Positions 25,866-60,090 are shown, numbered from the stretch's first letter. The stretch: 64,000 nt of DNA from Clostridiaceae bacterium (GCA_040797845.1 JBFNFA010000002.1:9809-73808), one strand, 5' to 3'. Translations and numbers: made by a program. The notes: generated by a model from the sequence alone, not told the origin.

Positions 25866-27186
25866 TAGGGACGGTTCACACCAATTCCCTATTTTTTATC
25901 CTTTATATTTTACCACTTTTAATATATTGTTTAAATATATTCATTATGTCTATAATTATTAATGTCAATTTAAAATAAAATATACTTTAAATAAATAGAA
26001 AGGATGAAATAATTTGCCTAGAATTCCTAGAGTAAAGGTAGATAATGGAATATACCATGTTATAATGCGTGGACCTAAGGAAATAAATCTATTTAGAACT
26101 AAAAATGATAAGGATAAATTCCTTACTATATTAAGAAAATATAAAAATATATTCTTATTCGACGTACTTGCTTACTGTTTAATGGATACTCATATTCATC
26201 TATTGATTGATCCTAAAAATGCCGATATTAGTATGTTTATGAAATCAATTAATCAAAGTTATGCTCAATATTACAATAGAATATATGATAGATGTGGTCA
26301 TGTATTCATCGACAGATTTAAAAGTTTTGTAGCTTTAAAAGAAGAACAGATAGTTTCAATGTCAGCATATATACATAATAACCCTAAAGACATAAAAGGG
26401 TACAATAAGAGTGTTGAAAACTATGGCTATTCTAGCTTTGGAATATATATTGGCAAAACTAAGGATGAACACCAAATTATTAACTGCAGATTTTTATTAA
26501 ATTATTATTGTAAAGACCCAATTCAAGCTGCACAGCAATATTACTCCTATGTTAAAAATAGATGTACCGATAGAGATCAGTATATTCAAGATATCCTTGT
26601 AAATTTAAATGATAAGCTAAATTTAAAGTACAATTTATCTAACGATATCTCTTGTTATTATAGTGGAATAAAACCTCTGATTAAAGATATAACACCTGAA
26701 GAAGTTCTCAATTTCTTTTTTAAAGAATGCAACTTAGACAATACTCTCTTTAATATTAAATACAATAGAAAAATATCTAACTATAGAGCAATTATTGTTT
26801 TAGTACTGAGATCTTTTTGCAACTATACCTTTCAACAAATTTCTAATATAATAAATAATTTCACCCATTCATCTTTATCGCGGTTATGTACTAAGGGATA
26901 TTTCCTCATATCAAATGACAAATATTATAAAAATATAATAGATACCTTCTTAGAAAAATATTCTATTAATTATGATTATAAATATAGTTAATTTTTAAGA
27001 TTATGTTGTCAAAATATATACAAATAAATCATTATTGTACAACCTATAAAAATCTATAAAAACTATAAATATAAAATAAAGTTAAACTATTGGAGCATAA
27101 TAAAAAACAACTCATAAATTAAACTTGATTAGTCTAATTTATAAGCTGTCATTTATTAACTTTTTATAATTTATGAACCGTCCCTA
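25866..27186 (+). mobile_element. RAYT-REP module: HUH Y1 transposase gene bounded by a perfect 13-bp inverted repeat
   Basis: TAGGGACGGTTCA (25866-25878) and TGAACCGTCCCTA (27174-27186) flank the Y1 transposase gene. Confidence 0.75.
26014..26991 (+). CDS. REP-associated tyrosine transposase (RAYT, Y1_Tnp/HUH) with C-terminal helical DnaA_C-like domain
   Basis: MPRIPR, YHVIMRG, AYCLMDTHIHLL (HUH), YAQYYN, GHVF.DRFKS, YIHNNP (catalytic Tyr), YSS; extra ~120-aa C-terminal region. Confidence 0.9.
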   Translation: MPRIPRVKVDNGIYHVIMRGPKEINLFRTKNDKDKFLTILRKYKNIFLFDVLAYCLMDTHIHLLIDPKNADISMFMKSINQSYAQYYNRIYDRCGHVFIDRFKSFVALKEEQIVSMSAYIHNNPKDIKGYNKSVENYGYSSFGIYIGKTKDEHQIINCRFLLNYYCKDPIQAAQQYYSYVKNRCTDRDQYIQDILVNLNDKLNLKYNLSNDISCYYSGIKPLIKDITPEEVLNFFFKECNLDNTLFNIKYNRKISNYRAIIVLVLRSFCNYTFQQISNIINNFTHSSLSRLCTKGYFLISNDKYYKNIIDTFLEKYSINYDYKYS

Positions 27187-47734: not shown

Positions 47735-48150
47735 GTACGCAACTTAAAAATGCTACGTAATGTGCCCTATGCATTTGAGCGAAATCTAGAAATTCTTAAT
47801 TTATTTTAGAGATTTTTATAAAATAAATTTTAGAAATTCTTATTGTAGCGAACTAGCATAAGAAGCATTATATAGCATTTTTTGTTTGTTGTAATACAAA
47901 ATTGTTTTCACATTTATAAGTTTTTACAAAGATAAATAGGTATCCAAAATGGGAACTGAGATACATAATGACGTCACTTCACAAAAGGCGTTCCTCCCAT
48001 TATATACCTCAGTTCCTTTATGTTTTACAGATATATTTTCACAGTTGTAAATTTCTACAGAGATAGTTTGTTGTATTAAATAGAGAGCTAAGCACATAGT
48101 GAAGTTGCTCCAGAAAAAAGTCACTTTTTCACTACATACTTAGCTCTTTT
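47735..48150 (-). repeat. Hairpin-array repeat (family H), locus 1: modules B, A1, A2
   Basis: B arms 47746-47762/47866-47882; A1 about 47952-48016; A2 arms 48084-48103/48128-48147; homologous to 51005-51374 and 58490-59919. Confidence 0.88.
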
Positions 48151-48246
48151 GTTTTTTATATCCATATTTTATTTATGCATTTACTACTATTTTAATGTTC
48201 ACACCTAATAAATGCTATTACAAGAATACTTAAGAATATTAAGATT

Positions 48247-50766
48247 TTACTTATGAAGAAGGTTTATTAAAACTCTATATGCACCAGGCACTAAATTAGG
48301 AACTTGACGATACCAAGCAAGAGATGAGTAGGTGTAAGTTCCCTTTCCATATTCAGTTGTAAGCAATGTGCTGGTAAATTCACTTTCTCCAGGATCACCA
48401 GTGGAGATAAGCTCTACATATTTACTGTCCCATTTAGATGGATTATAAGCAGCTCTATCCTGAATCCAATTCTCCCAATCCTTTTCCGTTATTTTATTAG
48501 GGGAATTGAAAAATTTGTGCTCAGGCTTTAACATTGTAACCTTTGAGTTTTCATCTGTTACACGCCAATTCATAACAGGTGTTCCTATGGTCAATGGATA
48601 TGGGGCTAACTCTGGATTCCAATTGTCTTCGGCTTTATTATATTGTATTACTAAATTTCCACCATTTTTAACATATTCTAAAAGTCTATTGTTGCTCTTT
48701 ACAAGGTCAGGTCGTGCAAGATAGGCTCTAATTGCTACCACAATAGTATCAAACCTAGATAGGTTGCCTGCTTCTAAATCTTCTTTAGTTAGATTTGTTA
48801 CATTCAAACCAACACGACGAAGGAACTCGTCAGTCTCATCAAAACCACTAGATATATATCCTACCTTTAAATTTTTATCGAATTTAACATCAAAGGCTTG
48901 AACCTTTACTTGGGATGGTTGAACAAAATAGGTACGGCCTATGTGTGGATACTCAATAACTTGAATTGATTCCTCACTTACTACGGAACCTCTTAGTGCC
49001 TTAGCTTTAATTTCATGTGTTCCGTCTTCTACTTTAGCAGGAGGTTTTACAGTAAAATCTGCAGATTGAATTTCACCTTTTTTACTAAATTCAACTACTG
49101 TGGACTTAGGTTCTACTGACCAACCCTTGGGTACGTCAAGATATACTGTAGCTTTATTAGAGGAGGAAGTATAATTAGTTAAAGTCACAGTAACAGGAAT
49201 AGGTTTCTCTGGTTCCAGTGTATTTAATATAGCTGCTGATGGATTAAGAGATACTGAGAACTCTGGCAATACTGCAAAAAGCTCTTTAGAACTAACATTT
49301 AAAACAGCTTTTGAACCAAAACTTTCATATTCTACAGTAGCTTTCATAATATTTTCTTCATAAGGATGAAAAGTTTTTGCATTATTAGGTATGGTTACAT
49401 CAAATTCAAATATAGCTGTTTCACCATTTTTTAAAGTATTTTTTATAGGAGACTTTCCATTAACCTTCCAGCCAGCTGGTAAATTTAGCTTTGTCCCTAA
49501 ATTTTTAATATCTAAGTTTCCACCGTTGTACACCTTCACAGTAGTCTTTATAGTCTGCCCTCTAGTTACTTCTGAAGTTTCTGGGATAACTCTTATCACT
49601 ACAGAATTACTAACGCTACTAGCATTATAAAGTTGATCAATTTTCTTATTTAATCGGTGTAAAATATCTACTTTTAATTCTTTATTTAAAGAGGACTCAT
49701 TAACTTTTTTTATTGCAGATTCTACATCTACTATCATCTTGTGTACATTTTTATTAACCTCTTCAAAGTTAGGGAAGGATTTTTCTATATCTTCAGCATC
49801 TCTTTGAAGTTTCAAAATATGATCTACTACACCTTTAGAATTCTTATCTTTTTTTATTTCTTCTGCTAAATCTTTAAATGTAAATGCTATGCCATCAAAA
49901 AAATTTTCCTTTCCTTTTACTTCAGGCTTTAATAATGTGTAATAGCGATAAGATGGACCTTCTTCATAATCCCTTCCCATGCCCTGACACTTATGCATGT
50001 ATCGTGATTCCTCTCCTAATTGAACATAGGATGAAGCATAAACTTTATCATAAGTTCCAACAGGTACAGCTGTAGTGTGTTTATCCTTGCTTCCAGGTTC
50101 ATATAATTTCTTTGCCTTCCAAGGCATTAAACCTACTTTTAGATGTTCCGGGTATTTGGTAGGATCTTGTGCCAACTCATAAGCTTTCTTAGTCAAAATA
50201 TTTATAGCCTGGTGGTGTCCATGAGTACTTTTTACATTTTCAAATGCAGGGAAAATTACATCTGGACGGTGTGTTCTTATGCTCCTTACAAGACGCTCTA
50301 AAACCACATCTTCTCCCCATTTTTTTAAAGTTTCCTCCCAACTTTTAGAGAAACCAAAATCCTTCAAGGGTTCATCAATATCTTTACGAAGAATCTCTAA
50401 ATCTACATCTAATATTTTAGCCGCCTCTTCATACTCTCTAGTTCTTAACACACTTAAGGCATCCTCTAGTTCTGAACCAATCTCATTTTGTCCCCCTTGT
50501 CCTCGAGTTACACTTACTATAGAGGTGTCCACCCCTAAACCAAGAGAAGTATAAGCTAAAAGAGCACTGTGTTCATCATCAGGATGAGCACAAACATTCA
50601 TAACACTTGTTACCGTAGTTAAAGGTTTTATAGCCTTCCAAAGTTCTACAACCCCACGTTCTGCTCTAACCTGCTCCGCTCCAACTTTGTTGGGAACAAC
50701 AATTGATCCCATAATAAAAATTAGTGTAATTATAGAAGCTAAACGTTTAGTAAAAGATTTTGACAT
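48247..50766 (-). CDS. Secreted PIG-L/LmbE family deacetylase with NEW3 and C-terminal GATase-like domains
   Basis: AHPDDE, TRGQGGQN, RTRE, HGHHQA, HKCQGMG; NLPAGWKV; YVKNGGNLVIQY. Confidence 0.88.
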   Translation of the reverse strand: MSKSFTKRLASIITLIFIMGSIVVPNKVGAEQVRAERGVVELWKAIKPLTTVTSVMNVCAHPDDEHSALLAYTSLGLGVDTSIVSVTRGQGGQNEIGSELEDALSVLRTREYEEAAKILDVDLEILRKDIDEPLKDFGFSKSWEETLKKWGEDVVLERLVRSIRTHRPDVIFPAFENVKSTHGHHQAINILTKKAYELAQDPTKYPEHLKVGLMPWKAKKLYEPGSKDKHTTAVPVGTYDKVYASSYVQLGEESRYMHKCQGMGRDYEEGPSYRYYTLLKPEVKGKENFFDGIAFTFKDLAEEIKKDKNSKGVVDHILKLQRDAEDIEKSFPNFEEVNKNVHKMIVDVESAIKKVNESSLNKELKVDILHRLNKKIDQLYNASSVSNSVVIRVIPETSEVTRGQTIKTTVKVYNGGNLDIKNLGTKLNLPAGWKVNGKSPIKNTLKNGETAIFEFDVTIPNNAKTFHPYEENIMKATVEYESFGSKAVLNVSSKELFAVLPEFSVSLNPSAAILNTLEPEKPIPVTVTLTNYTSSSNKATVYLDVPKGWSVEPKSTVVEFSKKGEIQSADFTVKPPAKVEDGTHEIKAKALRGSVVSEESIQVIEYPHIGRTYFVQPSQVKVQAFDVKFDKNLKVGYISSGFDETDEFLRRVGLNVTNLTKEDLEAGNLSRFDTIVVAIRAYLARPDLVKSNNRLLEYVKNGGNLVIQYNKAEDNWNPELAPYPLTIGTPVMNWRVTDENSKVTMLKPEHKFFNSPNKITEKDWENWIQDRAAYNPSKWDSKYVELISTGDPGESEFTSTLLTTEYGKGTYTYSSLAWYRQVPNLVPGAYRVLINLLHK

Positions 50767-51004
50767 AACATACCCTCCTTTTTTTAAATATAATAAATAT
50801 AATTAGTTAATACGATTAACTAATTCTTTATTATTACTTTATATTATTCCACAGATTCCAAATGATTCCTTCATATAACAGAATTTTCAAAAAACTTTTT
50901 TTTAACAATCTCTGCGATTTTATATTGCATAATTCTTATATATCAGTTGATATTTGTAGAACCTTTAGATTGTTTTTTCAAATATGAGTTCCCACAAAAT
51001 TAAC

Positions 51005-51374
51005 TAGGTATCAAAAGGGAACTAAGTACATAATGACGTCACGTCACAAAAGGCGATCCTCCCATTATATACTTAGTTCCTTTATGTTCCACAGATGCAT
51101 TTTCAAATTTATATTGTGCCGAATTGATTTCTAAAATATAAATTTCTACAAAGATAATTTAGTTTTACAAATGAAGAGCTAAATACATAGGTGAAGCGCT
51201 CCAGAAAAAGTCACTATTTCACTACATACTTAGCTCTTTTGTTTTTAGAAATATATTTTTAAATTTATATTATGACAGTTTAATTTGCTAAATATTAATT
51301 TTTATAATTTCATTGGGTAAAACTTAAAAATGCTACGTAATGTGACCTATGCATTTAAGCAAGATCTAGAAATT
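51005..51374 (-). repeat. Hairpin-array repeat (family H), locus 2: A1, A2, C, first half of B
   Basis: A1 51018-51080; A2 51175-51237; C from 51261; B left half 51321-51374, ending at the DUF4358 stop codon. Confidence 0.88.
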
Positions 51375-51843
51375 ATTTAAAATATCCATCGAAAATACTT
51401 TCTATTTTTTCACTATCCTCTGAAATAATAAATAATATATATCTACCGTTGTTCTTTAATGTATAGTTTTTTGCATTTTCATATTGATCTGGCAGATACG
51501 TTTCAAAGGTTTTTTGTACATCACCTGCACGCTTCTTTATTCCTTCAACTACTTCATCAACGTTTTTTTCATCTTTTACTTTAATTATCGCTAATTCATC
51601 TGCTTTTACATTCATTAATGGGATTTGAACAACAAACTCTTCTATAATATCAGGGTTAACGTAGTATTTTTCTTTTACTTCTTCCTCTTTTAGCTCTACC
51701 ATAGGTGAACTTTCTACCTCATCTTTAATTTTTTCCGCTATTTCTCTAACTGACACATTTACTTCTTTCGTAGTTTTGCCACATCCAAATAGTGAAAGTA
51801 AACTTACAATTAAAAGTAAGAATATAAGTACTTTTTTATTCAC
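51373..51843 (-). CDS. DUF4358 family lipoprotein
   Basis: GGAGGAG SD, GTG at 51843, lipobox LFGC, ADELAIIKVKD, FETYLPDQY. Confidence 0.8.
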   Translation of the reverse strand: MNKKVLIFLLLIVSLLSLFGCGKTTKEVNVSVREIAEKIKDEVESSPMVELKEEEVKEKYYVNPDIIEEFVVQIPLMNVKADELAIIKVKDEKNVDEVVEGIKKRAGDVQKTFETYLPDQYENAKNYTLKNNGRYILFIISEDSEKIESIFDGYFK

Positions 51844-52080
51844 GCTATCTCCTCCTCTTGTAATTAAATATTTAGCTTGTCTCAATATTTAATACGCAAA
51901 GGAAATATAAATAGATATATGATTAGAAATTATTTTTGTACCAATTTCATCCTATAATTATCATCCCAAATGCTCCTATTAAAGTGTGTAAAAGTCATTT
52001 ATATCATAGTAATTACTATGAATTCTAAAACTTTAAATAAAAATTATAAATGCAAATTATAAATACAAATTATAAAATAA

Positions 52081-52115
52081 AAAACTAAGCTACCCATATT
52101 GGATAGCTTAGTTTT
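52081..52115 (-). terminator. Terminator after the MATE gene
   Basis: AAAACTAAGCTA-CCCATATTGGA-TAGCTTAGTTTT. Confidence 0.65.
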
Positions 52116-52198
52116 AATTATTAAGATTCTTATCTTATTAACTATTCTCCATTCACTAGATTTATATTTAAATAGTAGAATGTAAAATTCTATGAAAA

Positions 52199-53593
52199 TT
52201 AGACTGTTGCAGCTTTTTTAGGCTGCTCTAAAGTCTCTTCCTGCAGCATCTCCTTTTTTAAGCTCTTGTTTAACCAAATGGACATTATAAGAGTTTCTAT
52301 AAATGCCAATCCATCCGCTGCCGTTTGACAGAATATTACTCCATTTAACCCCATAAACTTTGGTAAAATATACATCAATGGGATATAAAATATTCCCTGT
52401 CTAGATATAGATAATATAAAAGCTCCCACTGCTTTACCTAAGGCTTGGAATAATACTGCATAGGTATTTATATATCCGAAAAGTGGAAATAATAAACTTG
52501 CTGATCTAAAGGCCTTTATTCCTATATCTATAACCTCTCTATCTCTTGTAAATATGAGCATACACTGCTCTCCAAAAGCTATAAATATAATAGATACAAA
52601 TATGGCAGCAATTGTGCTCCATTTAATAGATATTTTTATAGCTTCTTTTAATCTAGTAAAGTTTTTAGCTCCATAATTATATCCTGCAACAGGTTGGAAT
52701 CCTTGTCCGATTCCAAATACTATATAAAATCCTATAGACATAACTCTAAATACTATACCCATGGCAGCCACTGCTGCATCTCCGTAAGGTTTTGCTCCTA
52801 AATTCATAAATCCTAGAGCAAAGCTTGCCAATACTTGAGTTACAAAAATAGGAATACCTATCTTAAGTATTTCAAAAAACATATTAAAAGTTGGTTTTAA
52901 AAGCTTAATGCTTAATTTTATATAGCTTTTCTTAGAATAATAATATCTTAAAAGAAAAATGAAGGATACTAACTGGGATATAACCGTAGCAACTGCGGCA
53001 CCTTTTATACCCATATTAAATGTAAACATAAATATAGGATCTAGTATTATGTTTATAATACCTCCTATACAAGTAGATATCATACTATATTTTGAATTTC
53101 CTTCTGCTCTAATAGTATTGCTCATTATTGCTGTTCCAATAGTAAAAACTGATCCCAATACTATTGAATATCCATATTCTCTTGCATAGGGCATTATGGT
53201 TTCTGTTGCTCCATACATCAATAAAAAATTATCTAAAAATATTGTAGCGATTACAGTAAAAATTAAACTAAATATACATCCAATTATTATAATAGATGTT
53301 AGAGTCTTATCAGCTTCCTCTTTTTTCTTTTCTCCCAACAATCTTGATAGATAAGAAGCACCTCCTGCACCAAACATAACCCCTATAGCTCCAATAAACA
53401 TAAACAGTGGATATACTATAGATACGGCAGCAATAGCACTAGTATTGTTTAACATACCAACAAACATAGTATCAACTATGTTATAAATAGCATTAATTAA
53501 CATAGCTATTATTGCAGGTACTGATAACTTTAAAAGCACCTTGGATATACTCTCTTTCTCCATCATTTCTGCTGTAGATATTGTGTTTTTCAT
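52199..53593 (-). CDS. MATE family efflux transporter
   Basis: LSVPAII, YNIVDTMFVG, RLLGEK, IRAEGN, NIILDPIF, GIKGAAVAT, QPVAGYNYGA. Confidence 0.93.
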   Translation of the reverse strand: MKNTISTAEMMEKESISKVLLKLSVPAIIAMLINAIYNIVDTMFVGMLNNTSAIAAVSIVYPLFMFIGAIGVMFGAGGASYLSRLLGEKKKEEADKTLTSIIIIGCIFSLIFTVIATIFLDNFLLMYGATETIMPYAREYGYSIVLGSVFTIGTAIMSNTIRAEGNSKYSMISTCIGGIINIILDPIFMFTFNMGIKGAAVATVISQLVSFIFLLRYYYSKKSYIKLSIKLLKPTFNMFFEILKIGIPIFVTQVLASFALGFMNLGAKPYGDAAVAAMGIVFRVMSIGFYIVFGIGQGFQPVAGYNYGAKNFTRLKEAIKISIKWSTIAAIFVSIIFIAFGEQCMLIFTRDREVIDIGIKAFRSASLLFPLFGYINTYAVLFQALGKAVGAFILSISRQGIFYIPLMYILPKFMGLNGVIFCQTAADGLAFIETLIMSIWLNKSLKKEMLQEETLEQPKKAATV

Positions 53594-53797
53594 ATTCTTT
53601 TTTGCCTAATGAAAGCCTAGAAAAGCTTAGACATGCCTCCCTTCATAATTTAAATCTTAATTTTTTAATTTTATTATTATAGCGCTAGGCTTTGATTTTA
53701 TTTTTATAGGTCTTGAAATTAAGAACCACTTGCTAATATACCACGTTATTTTGTTCTTGACAAATACAATTTTAATACCCCTAAAAATTAATATATA

Positions 53798-53825
53798 AAG
53801 GCAAAGAGACTCCCTCTTTGCCCTT
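53798..53825 (-). terminator. Terminator-like hairpin downstream of the ABC operon
   Basis: AAGGCAAAGAG-ACTCC-CTCTTTGCCCTT. Confidence 0.55.
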
Positions 53826-53834
53826 ATACGTTAA

Positions 53835-54035
53835 ATTTATCCGATGACTACCATCCGTAATACTCCCATCGCACTCTGTGAAAGCGATTCACATAAAATC
53901 AAAGATTTTAGTTCTCTGCTTTTCTACAAGTGAAATATAACGGATGCTACGTCCCTGGATAAGTTCTTCTAATCTTCAGCTGGAGTAAGTATTCCTTTTA
54001 AGAAAACTCCATCTAAACCTAAGAATCACTTGATA
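53835..54035. repeat. ~200-bp interspersed double-hairpin repeat (family X, copy 2) with a 51-bp nested insert
   Basis: Homologous to 5128-5324; extra block 53870-53920. Confidence 0.85.
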
Positions 54036-54037
54036 TT

Positions 54038-55003
54038 CTATTTTACAATTAAATCTTCAATATTAATCTCTTTTTCTTGTAGTCCATTCTTTAACATAAA
54101 CTCTTGTGTTCTTTTAAGTTCTTCTATGTCTTTATCACTTATATTGCTATCAAAATCATACCAAGAATACATCTCTTTTGTTTCTTCAGGTGTTAATCCA
54201 ACTTCCTTAGCTGTTATCTCCATAGCTTCATCAAGATTATTATTTATATAGTCAATAGTATCTTTATGAACTTTTTTAAATCTATTAACTACTTCTTTGT
54301 TTTCCTCTAAAAACTTTTCACTTACAGCAGTTACTATAGTACCTTCTACTATTCCTTTTCCATTAGCTACAACTTTTCCTCCTGCCTTTATAGCATTTAA
54401 AGCCGCTGGTCCAGCTAAAAGTGCTACATCTACACTTCCATTATTAAGTGCAGCCAAAGCTTCTGGTATTCCCATATTTATAAATTCTATATCATCCTGT
54501 TTTAGTCCATCCTTTTCTAAGGTTCCAAGTAAAAGTTGATGAAGTACTGTTCCTTTAGGTCCCGCTACCTTTTTTCCTAAAAGATCCTTTGAGCTTTTTA
54601 TATCATCATTCTTTGTTATTATCATGAAAGCTTTAGGCGCTCTACTATATACATTAATTATTTTTAAATCTACTCCATTGGATGCAGCTAAAATAGCAGA
54701 AGTTCCTCCAAGAGCATGTACAAATTGTATTTCTCCAGCAGCAAGAGCTTGAGTTTGTTGAGGTCCTGAGGTTATTTCATGCCACTTTACCTCTATTTTG
54801 TCCTTTTCAAATTCTTTCTCAAAGCTTTCTTTGTTCTTTTCAATTATTGATGGTACATTTAAAGGTGCCTTTACATAAGTTATGTTTATTGGTTTATTAT
54901 TCTCCCCTTTAGCTTTCTTTTCTGTACTAGCACACCCAGCTAATACACTTCCCCCTATAGCAACTGTTAGTAATAATGACAATATCTTTTTTCCTTTTAT
55001 CAT
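54038..55003 (-). CDS. ABC substrate-binding lipoprotein, SsuA/NMT1-like
   Basis: Lipobox LAGC, SGPQQTQALAAG, GKKVAGPKGTVLHQLL. Confidence 0.88.
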   Translation of the reverse strand: MIKGKKILSLLLTVAIGGSVLAGCASTEKKAKGENNKPINITYVKAPLNVPSIIEKNKESFEKEFEKDKIEVKWHEITSGPQQTQALAAGEIQFVHALGGTSAILAASNGVDLKIINVYSRAPKAFMIITKNDDIKSSKDLLGKKVAGPKGTVLHQLLLGTLEKDGLKQDDIEFINMGIPEALAALNNGSVDVALLAGPAALNAIKAGGKVVANGKGIVEGTIVTAVSEKFLEENKEVVNRFKKVHKDTIDYINNNLDEAMEITAKEVGLTPEETKEMYSWYDFDSNISDKDIEELKRTQEFMLKNGLQEKEINIEDLIVK

Positions 55004-55031
55004 GTGTATCCCTCCAATTTATTTATACTAA

Positions 55032-55756
55032 TTAATATTCATCTTTAGAAAGGGTTTTTAAAATGTCTTCCTTAATATATATAAGATTATTTAAAGCTAA
55101 ATTTCTTGGGTAACTTTCCTCTATTCTATAATCTTTTATTACCTTTCCTTTATCCAAAATTATAATTCTATGCCCTAGTAAAATTGCCTCATCTACATTA
55201 TGAGTTACAAAAACTATTCCCTTTTTAGTTTCTTCATATAAATTTATAATTTCTCCTTGAAGATTAGATCTTGTGAAGTAATCCAATGCTGCAAAAGGCT
55301 CGTCCATTAACATTATATCTGGCTCATAAGCAAGGGCACGAGCTATGGAGACTCTGTGAGCCATCCCCCTGAAAGCTGGCTAGGATAAGCTTCTGAAAAC
55401 TTCTCTAACTTCATAAGCTTCAAAAGTTTATCTTCTATTTCCCTATTCCCTTTCTTTAAATAGAAAGTTATATTTTCTCTTACTGTAAGCCAAGGCATAA
55501 GTCTGCTCTCTTGAAATACCATTCCTATTTTAGGTTTAACTTCAACCTTATTCCTATAAAATGATATATTCCCTAAAGTAGCATCTTCTAATTTTGCTAA
55601 TAATCTTAATAGAGTTGTTTTTCCACATCCACTTTTGCCAAGTATTATAGTTATCATATTGCTTTCAATATTTAAATTTATACCCTCTAAAACTCTATAA
55701 CTTTTCCCATTTACTATGTAATCTTTACTTAAATCATTTATGCTATATCCTCTCAT
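55032..55756 (-). pseudogene. SsuB-like ABC ATPase split by a single-base frameshift
   Basis: 55343-55756 has GKSGCGKTT and ends LSGG; 55032-55364 continues MAHRVSIARAL..MDEPF..VTH. Junction is a G5 run (C5 at 55365-55369) where six bases restore the frame. Confidence 0.85.
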
Positions 55757-56510
55757 TATCGTCTACCCCTATGTCCCACACATTAATCCTTTTTACTAAA
55801 ATGGAAAATAAATAATCCATTAAACTTCCTAAAATCCCTATACATAAAATACCCACAATTACTACATCTGACCTTGAAAGCTGCTGTCCATCTAAAATAA
55901 GATATCCTAATCCCGATGAAGCCGCTACCATTTCTGCCCCTATTATAGCTCTCCAACTATAGCCTATACCAAGCCTCATTCCAACTAATATGTTAGGGAG
56001 TGCAGAAGGAACTACTATTTTAAAAAATATATCTTTTTTAGGAAGATCAAAAATTTTTCCTACTTCAATTAATTTTTTATCGCAACTTTCTACGCCTTTT
56101 ATGGTATTTAAGAACACTGGAAAAAAGGAGGCTAATATTATAATTATTATTTTAGACTTTTCCCCAATACCGAACCATAATATAAGCATTGGAACTAAAG
56201 CTAAAGGTGGAGTGTGTCTTATAAACTCTAATGCTGGTTTAAAGTAAATATATATTTTCTTATTTACTCCAAATAAAATTCCAATGGGAATTGCTAAAAG
56301 TAGAGTTATAAAAAATCCTATTAAAACTCTTATTAAGCTATATCCTATATGTTTAAATAAAACTCCTGAAGCCATAAGACTGGCCGCACTTTGAACTACG
56401 GATTGTGGTGAAGGAAGTATATAAGAAGTCCAATAGTTATTTATGCTACCTATATACCATAGAAAAACTATGGCTATAATAAGTATATATCCTTTTAACT
56501 TATACCCCAT
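55743..56510 (-). CDS. ABC permease, SsuC-like
   Basis: ILPSPQSV, IRHTPPLAL, EAA-like loop, AEMVAASSGLGY. Confidence 0.9.
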   Translation of the reverse strand: MGYKLKGYILIIAIVFLWYIGSINNYWTSYILPSPQSVVQSAASLMASGVLFKHIGYSLIRVLIGFFITLLLAIPIGILFGVNKKIYIYFKPALEFIRHTPPLALVPMLILWFGIGEKSKIIIIILASFFPVFLNTIKGVESCDKKLIEVGKIFDLPKKDIFFKIVVPSALPNILVGMRLGIGYSWRAIIGAEMVAASSGLGYLILDGQQLSRSDVVIVGILCIGILGSLMDYLFSILVKRINVWDIGVDDNERI

Positions 56511-57147
56511 CTCCCCTATTACATCCTCCTTTACACAACAGCATCTCTATAAGATTAACTTTTTCCTTTGTTTTCTCTATATTTTTTACCTCTTTTAATA
56601 TTTCTTCTTCTCCGCTTACCTCTGAAATATCTAGGTTTAAATCTCTAAAGAAACCAAGTGGGATAGGCGATTCACTACATCTATCTTCCTTTTTTATATG
56701 TAATCTTTCACATATATCATTCCAGGTTTCAAAAACAATCCTCGTCTTTCCTTCTTTTTCAAATATATGATTTCCCATGTCCTTTAGACAATTACAAGGA
56801 GTAGTTATAAAAAGTCTATTATCTTCGTCATTCTTTATGTATAAATCATATAAAGATCTAGCAGTATGAATTAATATTGGCTCTATTTTAGGTATGTGAA
56901 ATTTACTATGATTTATTTTATTTTCTATGTATTCAATAGCTGCAGGACATCTTGTGTCCAATATTATTTTATCTTCTTTTTCACTACATAAGGTTTTAAA
57001 TTTATTTTTCACCACATCTATTTGACTAGGAGGCTCTACCACTTCATAATCTTTTCTTTTTAGCTCTTGTAATAAATTTTCAAATTTAATCCCATACATA
57101 TTCTTAACAACTGGGTTTATCCAAATATAATTCATGATTAATTTCAT
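56500..57147 (-). CDS. Stand-alone [FeFe]-hydrogenase H-domain-like (Nar1-like) Fe-S protein
   Basis: DTRCPAA, ITTPCNCLK and EMLLCKGGCNRGDG match degenerate H-cluster motifs L1, L2 and L3. Confidence 0.72.
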   Translation of the reverse strand: MKLIMNYIWINPVVKNMYGIKFENLLQELKRKDYEVVEPPSQIDVVKNKFKTLCSEKEDKIILDTRCPAAIEYIENKINHSKFHIPKIEPILIHTARSLYDLYIKNDEDNRLFITTPCNCLKDMGNHIFEKEGKTRIVFETWNDICERLHIKKEDRCSESPIPLGFFRDLNLDISEVSGEEEILKEVKNIEKTKEKVNLIEMLLCKGGCNRGDGV

Positions 57148-57201
57148 CCTTTAAATCTTTTATTTTATATAATATAGCAAACAGTTTTATAATGCTAATT
57201 A

Positions 57202-57216
57202 TGATAATGATTATCA
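57202..57216. promoter_or_regulatory. Fur box upstream of the Fe-S protein/ABC operon
   Basis: TGATAATGATTATCA is an exact Firmicute 7-1-7 consensus TGATAATnATTATCA; 17/19 to the classical box (57203-57221); 55 nt upstream of the start. Confidence 0.85.
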
Positions 57217-57484
57217 ATATCATCATCTGTTACATTTTATCAATTCTATAAAAGTAAGTCAATATATGAATACTACATCATTTCCTCTATTTCATATTTT
57301 ATTACTATATTCCTCTTTTTTCCCTATAATCTATTAAATTTTGCTAGTTTTTTATACAAATATAACTTGATAATATAATTTTTAAGAAATTATTAAGAAT
57401 TTGGACAAATTCCTTTAATAAAATCTCTATAAATCTTTGGTATAATTAATAAATATATGAAACTAATACGAGGTAAGTGATGCT

Positions 57485-58399
57485 ATGAGAAAACTAAAAA
57501 GATTATTTAGAACAATATTTTTTATGATATTTATAGTGGCTATGTTTAAAGTCCTACATAATTTTAATTTTAAAAAAGATGTGCTTCCTGCGTCTGCTAT
57601 GAAAATCTATATTAAAGCTTCCGATGAAGTAAGCGAAAACAAACTTCAAGTAAATTGGAAATATGTAGCCGCATTGGATTCCTTGCGTATAAATAATGAC
57701 TTTTCAAAGGCAAATATAGAGGATGCAAAAAAAATAGCTGATGAATTTTTAGAGGTAAATACTTCAGAAAATAAATTTAAGAATTCTAAATATAAATTAT
57801 TGAGTTTTGATGAAGTTATAAACAAATTTTCCTATACCGATAAAGAGAAGGAGAAAATTTATAAATTTTTAGATCAATTAAATGATAAATATTTAGTTCA
57901 AGTAGATGAGAGTAAAAAAGTCTTCATAGAGGAATTAACTCCTACAGCTATAGACATATATAAAAATTATGATATTCTTCCCTCTGTAGCAATTGGACAA
58001 GCTATTATAGAATCTAATTGGGGTAATTCTACCCTTTCTTCTGAACATAATAATTTATTTGGCATAAAGTCTACTAAGTCATGGAAAGGCAAAACTGTAG
58101 ATATGAAGACTTCTGAAAACTATGATGATACCATAGTTGCTACATTTAGAGCCTATGATTCTCAAAAAGATTCCTTAGCTGATTATGCACAATTCCTTAA
58201 AAATAATCAAAGATATAAAGAAAATGGAGTTTTCAATGCCGTTGATTACATAAATCAAGCTAAAGCAATTGATAAAGCTGGATATAGCACAAAAAAGGAT
58301 GAGGATGGGAAAAATATGTATGCAGATCTTCTCATACAAATTATAAAGGAATATAATTTACAGCTTATCGATAGTAAGGTTCAACAAGAATCTTTTTAA
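57485..58399 (+). CDS. GH73 glucosaminidase-domain peptidoglycan hydrolase
   Basis: PSVAIGQAIIESNWG, NNLFGIK, FRAY, AGYST, YADLL; N-terminal TM. Confidence 0.9.
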   Translation: MRKLKRLFRTIFFMIFIVAMFKVLHNFNFKKDVLPASAMKIYIKASDEVSENKLQVNWKYVAALDSLRINNDFSKANIEDAKKIADEFLEVNTSENKFKNSKYKLLSFDEVINKFSYTDKEKEKIYKFLDQLNDKYLVQVDESKKVFIEELTPTAIDIYKNYDILPSVAIGQAIIESNWGNSTLSSEHNNLFGIKSTKSWKGKTVDMKTSENYDDTIVATFRAYDSQKDSLADYAQFLKNNQRYKENGVFNAVDYINQAKAIDKAGYSTKKDEDGKNMYADLLIQIIKEYNLQLIDSKVQQESF

Positions 58400-58489
58400 G
58401 TACATATTTATTGTTCAAAATTAAAGAACTAACCATATAAACATATTTATAAAATGGTTTTTATATTGTTAAGCCTCTACAAAGATACT

Positions 58490-58746
58490 TCAGTATTCAA
58501 AAGGGGAACTAAGTACATAATGACGTCGTTTCAAAAAGGCACTCCTCCCATTATATACTTAGTTCCTTTATATTTTAAAAATGTATTTTCAAATATAAAT
58601 TTCTACAAGAACAATTTAGTTTTACAAATATAGAGCTAAATATGTAGTGAAGCCGCTCCAATAAAAAGTCGCTTTTTCACTACATACTTAGCTCTTTTGT
58701 ATTTTACAAATATATTTTCAGAATTAGGTTATGACAGATTAGTTTT
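58490..58746 (-). repeat. Hairpin-array repeat (family H), locus 3 left part: A1, A2, C
   Basis: A1 58505-58566; A2 arms 58632-58651/58676-58695; C ends with TTATGACAGATTAGTTT at 58729-58745. Confidence 0.88.
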
Positions 58747-58813
58747 CAACTTGTAATTTTTACAAAAAATATTTGAGTATTCAAAACGAGGATTGAAGCA
58801 CATAACAATTCTC

Positions 58814-59032
58814 TTAAAGGTACTTTTTCAATTCATCTAAGCTATCAATATCAAATATATCCGTAGCTATAACATCAATAGTCTCTTCATCTAAAGCCTT
58901 TATCCTTTGTTTATATTCCTCGGGAATAGATTTAAATTTTTTTATAAGTTGTTTTATAAGAATTTCTGCCTTGCCTTCTTTCATTCCTTCTTTTACTCCG
59001 TCTTCCCTCAACATCTTTCCTATTTCAGTCAT
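58814..59032 (-). CDS. Predicted in-frame internal 72-aa protein (RpnS-like)
   Basis: AAGGAG (59042-59047) lies 9 nt before the ATG at 59032: MTEIGKMLREDG...DELKKYL. Confidence 0.6.
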   Translation of the reverse strand: MTEIGKMLREDGVKEGMKEGKAEILIKQLIKKFKSIPEEYKQRIKALDEETIDVIATDIFDIDSLDELKKYL

Positions 59033-59680
59033 GGACACCAACTCCTTAAATTTTATTTTTGATAATTCATCTCCAAACTTATCAAATAAAGCATATAATA
59101 AGCTTAAACATTGCAATTTTTCATTGCCCTCAGGCATTTTACCTGCTAATTCTATACTGTCTAAGGTTCTTTTGCTTCTACTTTCTTTTCCTCTCATCAA
59201 AGGTATAAAACTTAGTGCTACTATATCTTCACCATTTAAAGTTTCTTCTCTTTCTATCTTATTCTTTAAATACTCCAACTTTTCATCTCCATCTAAGTTT
59301 TTCATATAAAAAGCTTCTATTTCATATTTTATAGTTCCTGCATCTATATAGGTTTCAACATCCTCTATATCCGCTGAATAAATTACTATGGTTCTTATTT
59401 TTCTCTTTTCCTTATAAAAAAGTGATGCATCATAATATAAGAATCTCTTAATATCTTCTTTTTTATCCGTAGTTTGAAATTCAAAATGTAGATAGTTTCC
59501 ATCTTCTGTGTAAAAAAGATAGTCAGTATAGTTAGTTTTAATGTCTATGTTCTTTATTTCAGTTTCTGCCGGAGCTACTATTTTAGTGTCTATACCAAAA
59601 AATTTCACCGCATTATCTTTAAAGAATTCCATAGCCTTTTTTAAAACTGCATCTTCTACTTTATTATAATCCATACTCAT
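58814..59680 (-). CDS. Rpn/YhgA-like PD-(D/E)XK nuclease with C-terminal DUF4351
   Basis: TDYLF...LHFEFQ catalytic-type motif, RFLYY, GVKEGMKEGKAEILIKQLIKKF tail. SD spacing may favour the second Met (59674). Confidence 0.82.
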   Translation of the reverse strand: MSMDYNKVEDAVLKKAMEFFKDNAVKFFGIDTKIVAPAETEIKNIDIKTNYTDYLFYTEDGNYLHFEFQTTDKKEDIKRFLYYDASLFYKEKRKIRTIVIYSADIEDVETYIDAGTIKYEIEAFYMKNLDGDEKLEYLKNKIEREETLNGEDIVALSFIPLMRGKESRSKRTLDSIELAGKMPEGNEKLQCLSLLYALFDKFGDELSKIKFKELVSMTEIGKMLREDGVKEGMKEGKAEILIKQLIKKFKSIPEEYKQRIKALDEETIDVIATDIFDIDSLDELKKYL

Positions 59681-59748
59681 CCTCTCTTTCTACTGGTAAT
59701 TAAATATTAGGTATATACCATATTATTTCCAATAGGAAAAGATTTATG

Positions 59749-59762
59749 CGAATGTATGTTCG
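59749..59762. promoter_or_regulatory. LexA (SOS/Cheo) box upstream of the rpn gene
   Basis: CGAATGTATGTTCG matches CGAACRNRYGTTYG at 13/14; about 70 nt upstream of the start. Confidence 0.7.
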
Positions 59763-59919
59763 AAATTTATATTATGACGGATTAGTTTATCAAATATTAG
59801 TTCTTATAATTTATTGTATAAAACTTAAAACTGCTATGTAATGTACTCTATGCAATTGATTAAAATCTAGAAATTCTTATTACAACAAGACAGCATAAGA
59901 GGCATTATGTAACATTTTT
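59763..59919 (-). repeat. Hairpin-array repeat (family H), locus 3 right part: C, B
   Basis: 59763-59878 aligns with 51261-51374; full B hairpin 59821-59919 aligns with 47741-47882. Confidence 0.85.
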
Positions 59920-60090
59920 ATTTTTTGTACTCCTAAGTTGCTTTCTTAAATGTAGATTTTTGCGAATAATAATTATTATTTAATAAATATTTCAAAATCA
60001 TATAGCATAAGCGAAAATTTTGTAGTATAATTTTGTAACAAGTAGAATATGGTGGAATTATATTTGAAAATGACGAGGGAGGATTATTAC

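Follow-up and report, generated by a model that had tools for sequence, protein, structure and literature searches.

The 64,000-nt stretch of DNA analysed here (referred to below as the window) comes from a Clostridiaceae bacterium (GCA_040797845.1 JBFNFA010000002.1:9809-73808) and carries six long hairpins in three intergenic loci between positions 47,735 and 59,919. These hairpins belong, as modules, to a high-copy mosaic repeat that is interspersed and restricted to one genus, and they do not represent a rare non-coding RNA gene. Their stem is kept by purifying selection, and the selected form is a folded single strand. Our best reading of the family, for which we put the chances at about even, is that of a terminator-like or 3′-end-protecting interspersed repeat stem-loop. 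The source genome, designated G000 where contig coordinates are given, was assembled from a subsurface metagenome and is thus a metagenome-assembled genome (MAG).

Repeat finding and direct reading place the three loci at ~47.73–48.16 kb, 50.95–51.38 kb and 58.44–59.92 kb. The modules common to them are two hairpin types, A1 and A2, a spacer, D4, and two further blocks, D5 and D10. A covariance model built from 39 genomic copies, with a 20-pair stem set by hand, finds exactly six matches in the window, three A1 and three A2, every one of them on the minus strand. At locus 1, A1 (47940..48029, minus strand; 83.2 bits) contains 3 G-U pairs and folds at -30.3 kcal/mol on the minus strand versus -24.9 kcal/mol on the plus strand, while A2 (48071..48160, minus strand; 96.3 bits) contains 4 G-U pairs and folds at -31.2 versus -25.0 kcal/mol. 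At locus 2, A1 (51005..51093, minus strand; 78.9 bits) is likewise folded, and A2 (51162..51250, minus strand; 77.9 bits), which has one bulged base, folds at -29.4 versus -16.6 kcal/mol. At locus 3, A1 (58492..58579, minus strand; 85.7 bits) has no counterpart unit at the orthologous locus of Clostridium mobile (L046), where A2 (58619..58708, minus strand; 103.1 bits, the top score in the window; -37.5 versus -30.9 kcal/mol) does have an orthologous hairpin.

All six window hairpins have stems of 19–20 bp and loops of ~28 nt. In the minus-strand RNA folds the stems extend over 19–26 bp with 1–6 G-U pairs, and the sole irregularity is the bulge in the locus-2 A2; the minus strand folds more stably than the plus strand in five of the six. 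An earlier reading of the window, made from the sequence alone, had listed three A1 and three A2 hairpins whose stem mismatches are all minus-strand G-U pairs apart from that bulge, and both the covariance model and the folding bear it out. The compensatory change it reported in the locus-1 A1 (CTGAGG/CCTCAG versus CTAAG/CTTAG, with one added pair) is also real: this A1 has a long stem with an extra G-C pair, and the change recurs genome-wide as an A1 sub-type.

The family extends far beyond the window. The A1-A2 stretch of locus 3 alone has 57 blastn matches in its own 4.06-Mb assembly, and a module-by-module blastn map of this genome contains 141 hairpin units, 38 copies of D4, 41 of D5 and 35 of D10, clustered in 101 blocks over 24 contigs. 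The covariance model finds 134 same-strand hairpins in the same genome. Among the 87 hairpin-bearing blocks, 48 contain a single hairpin, 27 a pair and 12 between three and five. Where hairpins are neighbours they alternate between A1 and A2 in 42 cases, versus 2 pairs of the same type, with a period of ~135 nt; the order is A1-A2 in 24 cases, as at all three window loci, and A2-A1 in 18. Modules within a block are always co-oriented, in orders such as A-D4-D5-D10-A, and composite blocks carry same-strand hairpins at both ends. Each of the 38 D4 copies abuts a hairpin.

The hairpin module consists of an A-rich leader, an AU-rich stem of 19–20 bp, a semi-conserved loop of ~28 nt and a U-rich tail. 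Within the loop, C-UUUU and an AG are at least 90% invariant across A1 and A2, with an AGCG(N)C motif on either side of the U run. The GGAGGA or GGAG motif and the CUUUU noted in the sequence-only reading are present in these loops, and the CUUU can pair with GGAG, which lies 5′ of CUUU in A1 and 3′ of it in A2. A conserved small open reading frame (ORF) was rejected, in agreement with that reading, since each frame has stops in at least 86% of copies and none is open in more than 14%. Rfam gives no match at gathering thresholds across the whole window, and the earlier reading had recognised no known riboswitch or small RNA (sRNA) either; at E<=10 there is only noise, for example mir-610 at 27 bits (threshold 90), RAGATH-6 at 24 (170) and fstAT at 18 (72).

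Evidence for purifying selection on the stem comes from an alignment, fitted to the model, that contains 79 hairpins taken from the window and two sister genomes. Standard pairs occupy 95.5% of its 1579 stem cells, and both sides of the pair have changed at 14 of the 20 pairs (111 cells). When the partner is slid by 1–3 columns, pairing falls to 18–57%. None of 500 shuffles reaches the observed value on any of five measures, a significance that is overstated because the aligned copies are paralogues and not independent. The consensus stems of A1 and A2 differ by three AU to GC double changes. Two further comparisons are independent of the paralogue problem. First, 22 pairs of orthologous hairpins, one from this genome and one from a sister (flanks ~90–95% identical), differ by substitutions at 4.9% of stem, 7.7% of loop and 10.7% of flank positions. 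Second, a distant congener, whose flanking genes are ~76–78% identical, has a syntenic hairpin with a perfect stem and a compensatory transversion. The proposal that the stems are under selection therefore stands, with covariation beyond the 500 shuffles and the slid controls and with orthologous stems evolving 2–3 times more slowly than flanks.

The constraint is specific to one strand. The minus strand of the family, which is also the minus strand of the window, gives the more stable fold in 114 of 129 copies (p=5e-18), with a mean gain of 5–6 kcal/mol. In a fixed 20-pair register, 1330 pairs are Watson-Crick, 178 are G-U, 21 are A-C and 51 are other combinations, and the predicted strand-specific constraint is supported. 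Substitutions between orthologs follow the same pattern: 24–25 exchange Watson-Crick and G-U pairs and 6 exchange Watson-Crick and A-C pairs, and there are two double compensatory changes. The neutral expectation is ~1.27:1 when the reversion of pre-existing G-U pairs is allowed for, and the G-U excess is significant (binomial p=0.006). A mutational strand bias was rejected as the cause of the G-U pairs. G-U and A-C arise from the same transitions, so such a bias cannot account for the excess, and orientation is unrelated to GC skew; the constrained strand is the inferred leading strand in 44 of 101 blocks. A looser, strand-agnostic definition of the stem, the longest purine-pyrimidine complementary run, gives a G-U:A-C ratio of only 1.3–2.3. 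This low value is an artefact, because such a run reaches into flanking A-rich and U-rich sequence and takes in a constant loop-edge A.C in every A2. The mismatches that the stems tolerate are G-U pairs of one fixed strand, which means that selection acts on a single strand in folded form. The sequence-only reading had proposed such a strand, RNA or single-stranded DNA, and this part of it is a fair inference from covariation and strand bias; the discrete two-hairpin unit of ~250 nt to which it was tied is not borne out by the block counts given above.

Placement relative to genes is the other main source of evidence. Genes were called with our own longest-ORF caller (3824 genes, 87% coding), and nearly all repeat blocks are intergenic. 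Of 83 hairpin blocks, 33 have convergent neighbours, versus 12% of intergenic regions of at least 100 nt (3.3-fold, p=2e-10), and 5 have divergent ones, versus 21% of such regions. In tandem contexts the blocks lie nearer to the upstream stop (median 66 nt) than to the next start (median 176 nt), as is the case for 37 of 45. The 10 nt past the stem contain 6.6 T on the family-plus strand and 5.7 on the family-minus strand, where ~3.5 are expected from composition. Placement together with T-rich tails on both strands is the signature of a 3′-end or terminator-like element that is usable both ways.

On the terminator-like or 3′-end-protecting reading, the folded single strand would be RNA. Neighbouring genes would be transcribed into the module, which would then act as a 3′-end stem-loop, either as a long-stem intrinsic terminator working from both directions or as a barrier to 3′ exonucleases. 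Copies would spread and be reshuffled mainly through recombination between them, with gain and loss of units and the formation of chimeric A1/A2 hairpins, and the recombining arrays could become hot spots where accessory genes, for example rpn-like genes, come and go.

Several observations weigh against this reading. A purely bidirectional terminator would favour neither strand, and the conserved loop motifs exceed what a terminator needs. In tandem contexts the G-U strand is sense to its neighbours in 23 cases and antisense in 22, and the per-hairpin counts of G-U and A-C are alike across transcriptional contexts; read-through from neighbours therefore does not set the constrained strand. This context-independent strand constraint is a real puzzle. 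The possibilities are that the element has transcription of its own, that it is DNA which folds, or that the RNA of the minus strand plays a further part. A simple terminator consensus scan calls none of the hairpin sites, as their loops of ~28 nt exceed 8 nt and their stems are GC-poor, both of which are atypical. The gene caller behind the placement counts is a simple one, and in a sequencing-run look-up the sole full match was the source metagenome, with no RNA run.

Comparison with relatives indicates how the blocks change. Many are fixed at orthologous sites (for example, L037, L047, L048 and L063), while others differ in content. Locus L065 of C. mobile has one hairpin where this genome has three together with D5-D10, L072 has two hairpins where this genome has one, and L038 has D5-D10 where this genome has five hairpins. 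At the C. mobile counterpart of locus 2 (L062) the two hairpin types stand in the opposite order to the A1 then A2 found here. The hairpin-unit insertions and deletions (L072, L039 and L065) show no clean filled and empty sites and no target duplication; their edges are fuzzy or the sequence is replaced. A chimeric hairpin in C. mobile (L065:5050-5135) joins stem ends of the A2 type to an inner stem and loop of the A1 type; the corresponding locus of this genome carries the array A2-[D4-A1-D4-D5-D10]-A2. The lack of clean ends and duplications, taken with the chimeric hairpin, points to recombination between copies, not cut-and-paste, as the way in which the hairpin arrays change. Repeat blocks also appear to mark junctions of variable gene content. 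A sister MAG has no counterpart (L067) of a 6.7-kb gene island that lies between modules in this genome (G000 C1:354534-361273), with A1-D4 on one side and a partial A2 on the other.

The D5-D10 module behaves differently and is a separate small transposable element of the miniature inverted-repeat type (a MITE) that accompanies the hairpins. It is ~150–230 nt long, with or without an 82-nt insert, carries terminal inverted repeats of 17 nt, AAAAATGCTAYRTAATG (consensus of 27 copies), and is present in ~35–41 copies per genome, nearly always beside hairpins and co-oriented with them. The locus-1 copy (47738..47894) is bounded by TTTATTGTA / TTTGTTGTA, and locus L049 of the sister MAG is its exact empty site, with one TTTATTGTA kept. 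Inverted repeats and a target duplication, the hallmarks of a MITE, are thus found for D5-D10 in one filled/empty pair, whereas the hairpin units lack them. Locus 2 holds the D5 half of the element (51308..51378, from the blastn map), and locus 3 a short form with both D5 and D10 (59809..59924) that is contiguous with the hairpin in C. mobile L046. The D4 spacer, which comprises the trailer and leader between units and often links hairpin modules to the unrelated D5-D10 element, so that mosaic blocks result, is found at 51243..51302, 58702-58761 and 59745-59804. Locus 3 also contains a degenerate third unit on the minus strand (58732..58840), made up of a leader and a decayed hairpin. It scores under the model threshold, overlaps the stop of the rpn-like ORF described below and includes the direct repeats D2 (58732-58797) and D9 (58816-58836).

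A further shared module of short TAGAT-type repeats (…AATAGATTTTTAGATAATAGAT…) follows several hairpins. It is found in the flanks of solo A2 units at G000 C2:133290, C2:201350, C3:264630, C8:1100, C11:16500, C11:29070 and C16:13110, and beside two non-syntenic hairpins of the distant congener (L083). Modules also lie within ~150–200 nt of contig ends at C8:100, C12:94, C17:98, C7:210500, C22:38758, C26:15062 and C30:8252, and for this reason the hairpin family is probably a cause of assembly breaks.

Among other explanations, the folded strand could be DNA: the hairpins may be single-stranded recognition structures for a trans-acting recombinase, transposase or nuclease, and the family a non-autonomous mobile or recombination element like REPINs, the palindromes of the insertion sequences (IS) IS200/IS605, or sites for Rpn proteins. 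We regard this as unlikely, if well worth weighing. G-T wobble on the recognised strand would explain the asymmetry, and the constrained strand is indeed a property of the element and not of its transcriptional context. Each block has one orientation, with same-strand hairpins at the composite ends as at IS200/IS605 ends, and hairpin units come without target duplication. Rpn-like genes are repeatedly found next to hairpins, an association described below. However, mobility of the IS200/IS605 type gives a strong orientation bias, and none is seen here with respect to GC skew or the leading strand (44/101, as above); with no Y1 gene nearby either, membership of this type was rejected. The genome has two Y1 (HUH, PF01797) genes, at window 26038-26382 (C2:35846-36190) and at C15:42580-42915, in open frames of 327 and 307 aa, and neither adjoins a hairpin-family block, so adjacency lends no support to a RAYT/Y1 protein as the partner of the hairpins. 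Many copies are also fixed at sites that are orthologous between species, the distant congener included, a sign that there is little current mobility, and dead mobile-element copies would not be expected to have stems that go on evolving in place under a pairing constraint.

The Rpn association involves a 288-aa gene inside the locus-3 array (58814..59680, minus strand) that has a DUF4351 C-terminus (Pfam, 9.2e-12) and is Rpn-like. It lies within a segment of ~986 bp (58766-59750) that is missing from the orthologous C. mobile locus L046, and this rpn cassette is bracketed by a 58-nt D4 duplication, the two locus-3 D4 copies. The sole Transposase_31 (YhgA/Rpn, PF04754) gene of the genome, at C2:139434-140471, sits between two hairpin blocks. 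Genes with a block on either side number only 13 of 3824, the two full-length rpn-like genes included. At five independent Rpn-like/DUF4351 loci in three hairpin-rich genomes, a hairpin is found within ~30–110 nt of the gene 3′ end at all five, in either orientation, and this holds for every Rpn-like gene (PF04754 or DUF4351-tailed) of these genomes; the regions concerned are window 58766-59750, G000 C2:139434-140471, G000 C11:29192-29320 and loci L084-L089. A hairpin-poor congener has DUF4351 fragments only, and these are without hairpins. Against a direct role, the sister MAG G001 is hairpin-rich and has no PF04754 gene, and the adjacency was noticed post hoc; it is a lead, not a mechanism. 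The 288-aa gene was rejected as the transposase of the family, as the genome has one full copy and one fragment. The more specific idea that the hairpins are cognate sites of Rpn/YhgA PD-(D/E)XK proteins (Transposase_31 and DUF4351 relatives), which would drive rpn-cassette exchange and array reshuffling, strikes us as a long shot.

Another of the 13 doubly flanked genes encodes an 839-aa PIG-L/NEW3 protein (window 48247-50766). This gene and both of its arrays are kept in place in C. mobile (L062) and in the MAG (L049); the gene has therefore not been captured recently.

A doubtful alternative, somewhat weaker than recognition of single-stranded DNA, is that the modules, or the D10-D5-D4-hairpin composites, are sRNA genes transcribed independently from one another on the G-U strand, a multicopy family whose conserved loop, with its GGAG, CUUUU and AGCG motifs, would bind a protein or mRNAs. 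Such a gene would explain a strand-specific constraint independent of neighbours, and it is consistent with the loop positions conserved in at least 90% of copies and with the lower divergence of loops (7.7%) than of flanks (10.7%). A minus-strand -35/-10-like site (ATTACA-17-TATAAT) at the D10 end points at the hairpins. However, the -10-like hexamer lies in the inverted repeat of the MITE and varies among copies (TATAAT, TGTAAT, TGCAAT and CATAAT), and a conserved promoter in D10 is for these reasons not supported. No conserved upstream promoter is common to the solo hairpins, which are the most frequent form. In addition, placement after stop codons and between convergent genes is typical of co-transcribed 3′ elements and not of sRNA genes, and ~135 copies at 75–90% identity would be unusual for a trans-acting sRNA.

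It is very unlikely that the repeat is a selfish or neutral palindrome whose arms are kept as double-stranded protein-binding repeats or by gene conversion, with the G-U pairs inherited from a founder. The G-U pairs are indeed concentrated in a few shared polymorphic columns (for example, U-G in 54 of 79 copies at one pair), and chimeric copies indicate frequent recombination or conversion. Recognition of double-stranded DNA, however, predicts equal numbers of G-U and A-C, and 178:21 is observed; the changes that postdate speciation favour G-U by 24–25:6 and include the two double compensatory ones; and the stem rate is under half of the flank rate. Least credible is the discrete ~250-nt two-hairpin RNA at three loci, comparable to a riboswitch or non-coding RNA gene, of the sequence-only reading: A1 and A2 do alternate when adjacent and stand as A1-A2 at all window loci, but the pair is a common arrangement and not an obligatory unit, the unit being a single hairpin module of ~90–130 nt present in ~134 copies, alone in 48 of 87 blocks, found in A2-A1 order nearly as often (18 versus 24), and, in C. 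mobile, reversed in order at locus 2 and reduced to one hairpin at locus 3.

The family is confined to one genus. A DNA search finds it in three of three congeners and in none of 37 other relatives, and the covariance model, run on 120 genomes of the taxonomic family, has hits in 4, which all belong to one of 59 genera. The carriers are C. mobile MSJ-11 and two MAGs, one of them named as an uncultured Clostridium MAG, and the distant congener holds three copies. The viral contigs, plasmids and phages searched contain no match to the family, and a literature search returned no description of the hairpin family or of repeats in C. mobile. One exact 23-nt match to a hairpin arm is found in an 11-kb contig (L061, CAIPJS010000032.1) of an 'uncultured Bacteroidetes' MAG, which is probably a mis-binned Clostridium contig.

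Among known repeat systems, the closest resemblance is to SPRITE, an interspersed repeat with an 18-bp stem and a U tail that is enriched at gene 3′ ends (PMC3049150). Both have a long duplex (18 bp in SPRITE, 19–20 bp in the hairpin family) followed by a U-rich tract, with stems that exceed those of ordinary Firmicute terminators, and both are strongly enriched near gene 3′ ends and are confined to a species group. The two are not known to be related in sequence, nor would this be expected between different genera. Unlike SPRITE, the hairpin family has a large semi-conserved loop of ~28 nt, U-rich tails on both strands, and alternating tandem arrays and mosaics with other modules. It also has a marked one-strand G-U excess, of which a term search of the SPRITE paper found no mention (PMC3049150). 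Likened by description, and given its absence outside its own Clostridium genus, the family would be an analogue and not a member of the pneumococcal SPRITE.

The BOX repeat of Streptococcus pneumoniae (boxA-boxB(n)-boxC) is also modular, and REP and BOX have been described as 3′ stabilisers or attenuators (PMC3049150). Like BOX, the hairpin family is an intergenic modular mosaic with variable tandem internal modules, predicted stable RNA folds and unit numbers that vary between strains or species. However, the terminal modules of BOX pair as terminal inverted repeats, whereas the modules described here form their own hairpins in direct orientation, and the sequences are unrelated. Similarity to the REP/BIME-RAYT systems of Enterobacteria and Pseudomonas lies in the high-copy extragenic palindromes, the mosaic arrangement, the position after genes and the imperfect hairpins read on one strand; REP/BIME elements have known RNA-level roles in mRNA 3′-end stabilisation and attenuation. 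REPs, in contrast, are 20–40 nt long, GC-rich, usually found as inverted pairs and linked to a flanked RAYT gene, while the hairpin family is AT-rich, 70–90 nt long and in direct orientation, with Y1 genes that are not adjacent. Membership of the REP/REPIN-RAYT group was rejected in view of the AT-rich stems, ~28-nt loops, direct orientation and want of any Y1 gene flanked by repeats.

Known MITEs (Correia, RUP and bcr1) are likewise small non-coding intergenic repeats that can be co-transcribed and form long hairpins which RNases may recognise. They differ in having terminal inverted repeats, target-site duplications and a related IS, whereas the hairpin units have no clean empty sites or duplications. 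An integron attC array was rejected, the copies being spread over ~100 loci on 24 contigs; direct reading of the hairpin consensus shows no GTTRRRY/RYYYAAC core, and no search was aimed at IntI. The family shows the helix covariation and strand-specific G-U excess of a structured single-stranded element (RNA or single-stranded DNA), and the long stem with a U-rich tract and the 3′-end enrichment of a SPRITE-type repeat. It belongs to a described kind, the interspersed structured repeats, and not to a described family.

The family makes up ~100 intergenic blocks per C. mobile-group genome, and it explains why the PIG-L/NEW3 gene and the rpn-like gene look repeat-bracketed. With enough copies and orthologous pairs to show both compensatory change and a post-speciation G-U excess, it is an unusually clean case for asking if interspersed repeats are selected as folded single strands. 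Two features stand out, the context-independent strand constraint and the Rpn adjacency. The latter is a cheap lead on the targets of Rpn-like nucleases. Were the hairpins their cognate sites, a target repeat would be defined for the first time for the long-annotated 'putative transposase' Rpn family, one that is read as a folded structure of a specific strand, and an Rpn nuclease would drive the array recombination that captures accessory genes.

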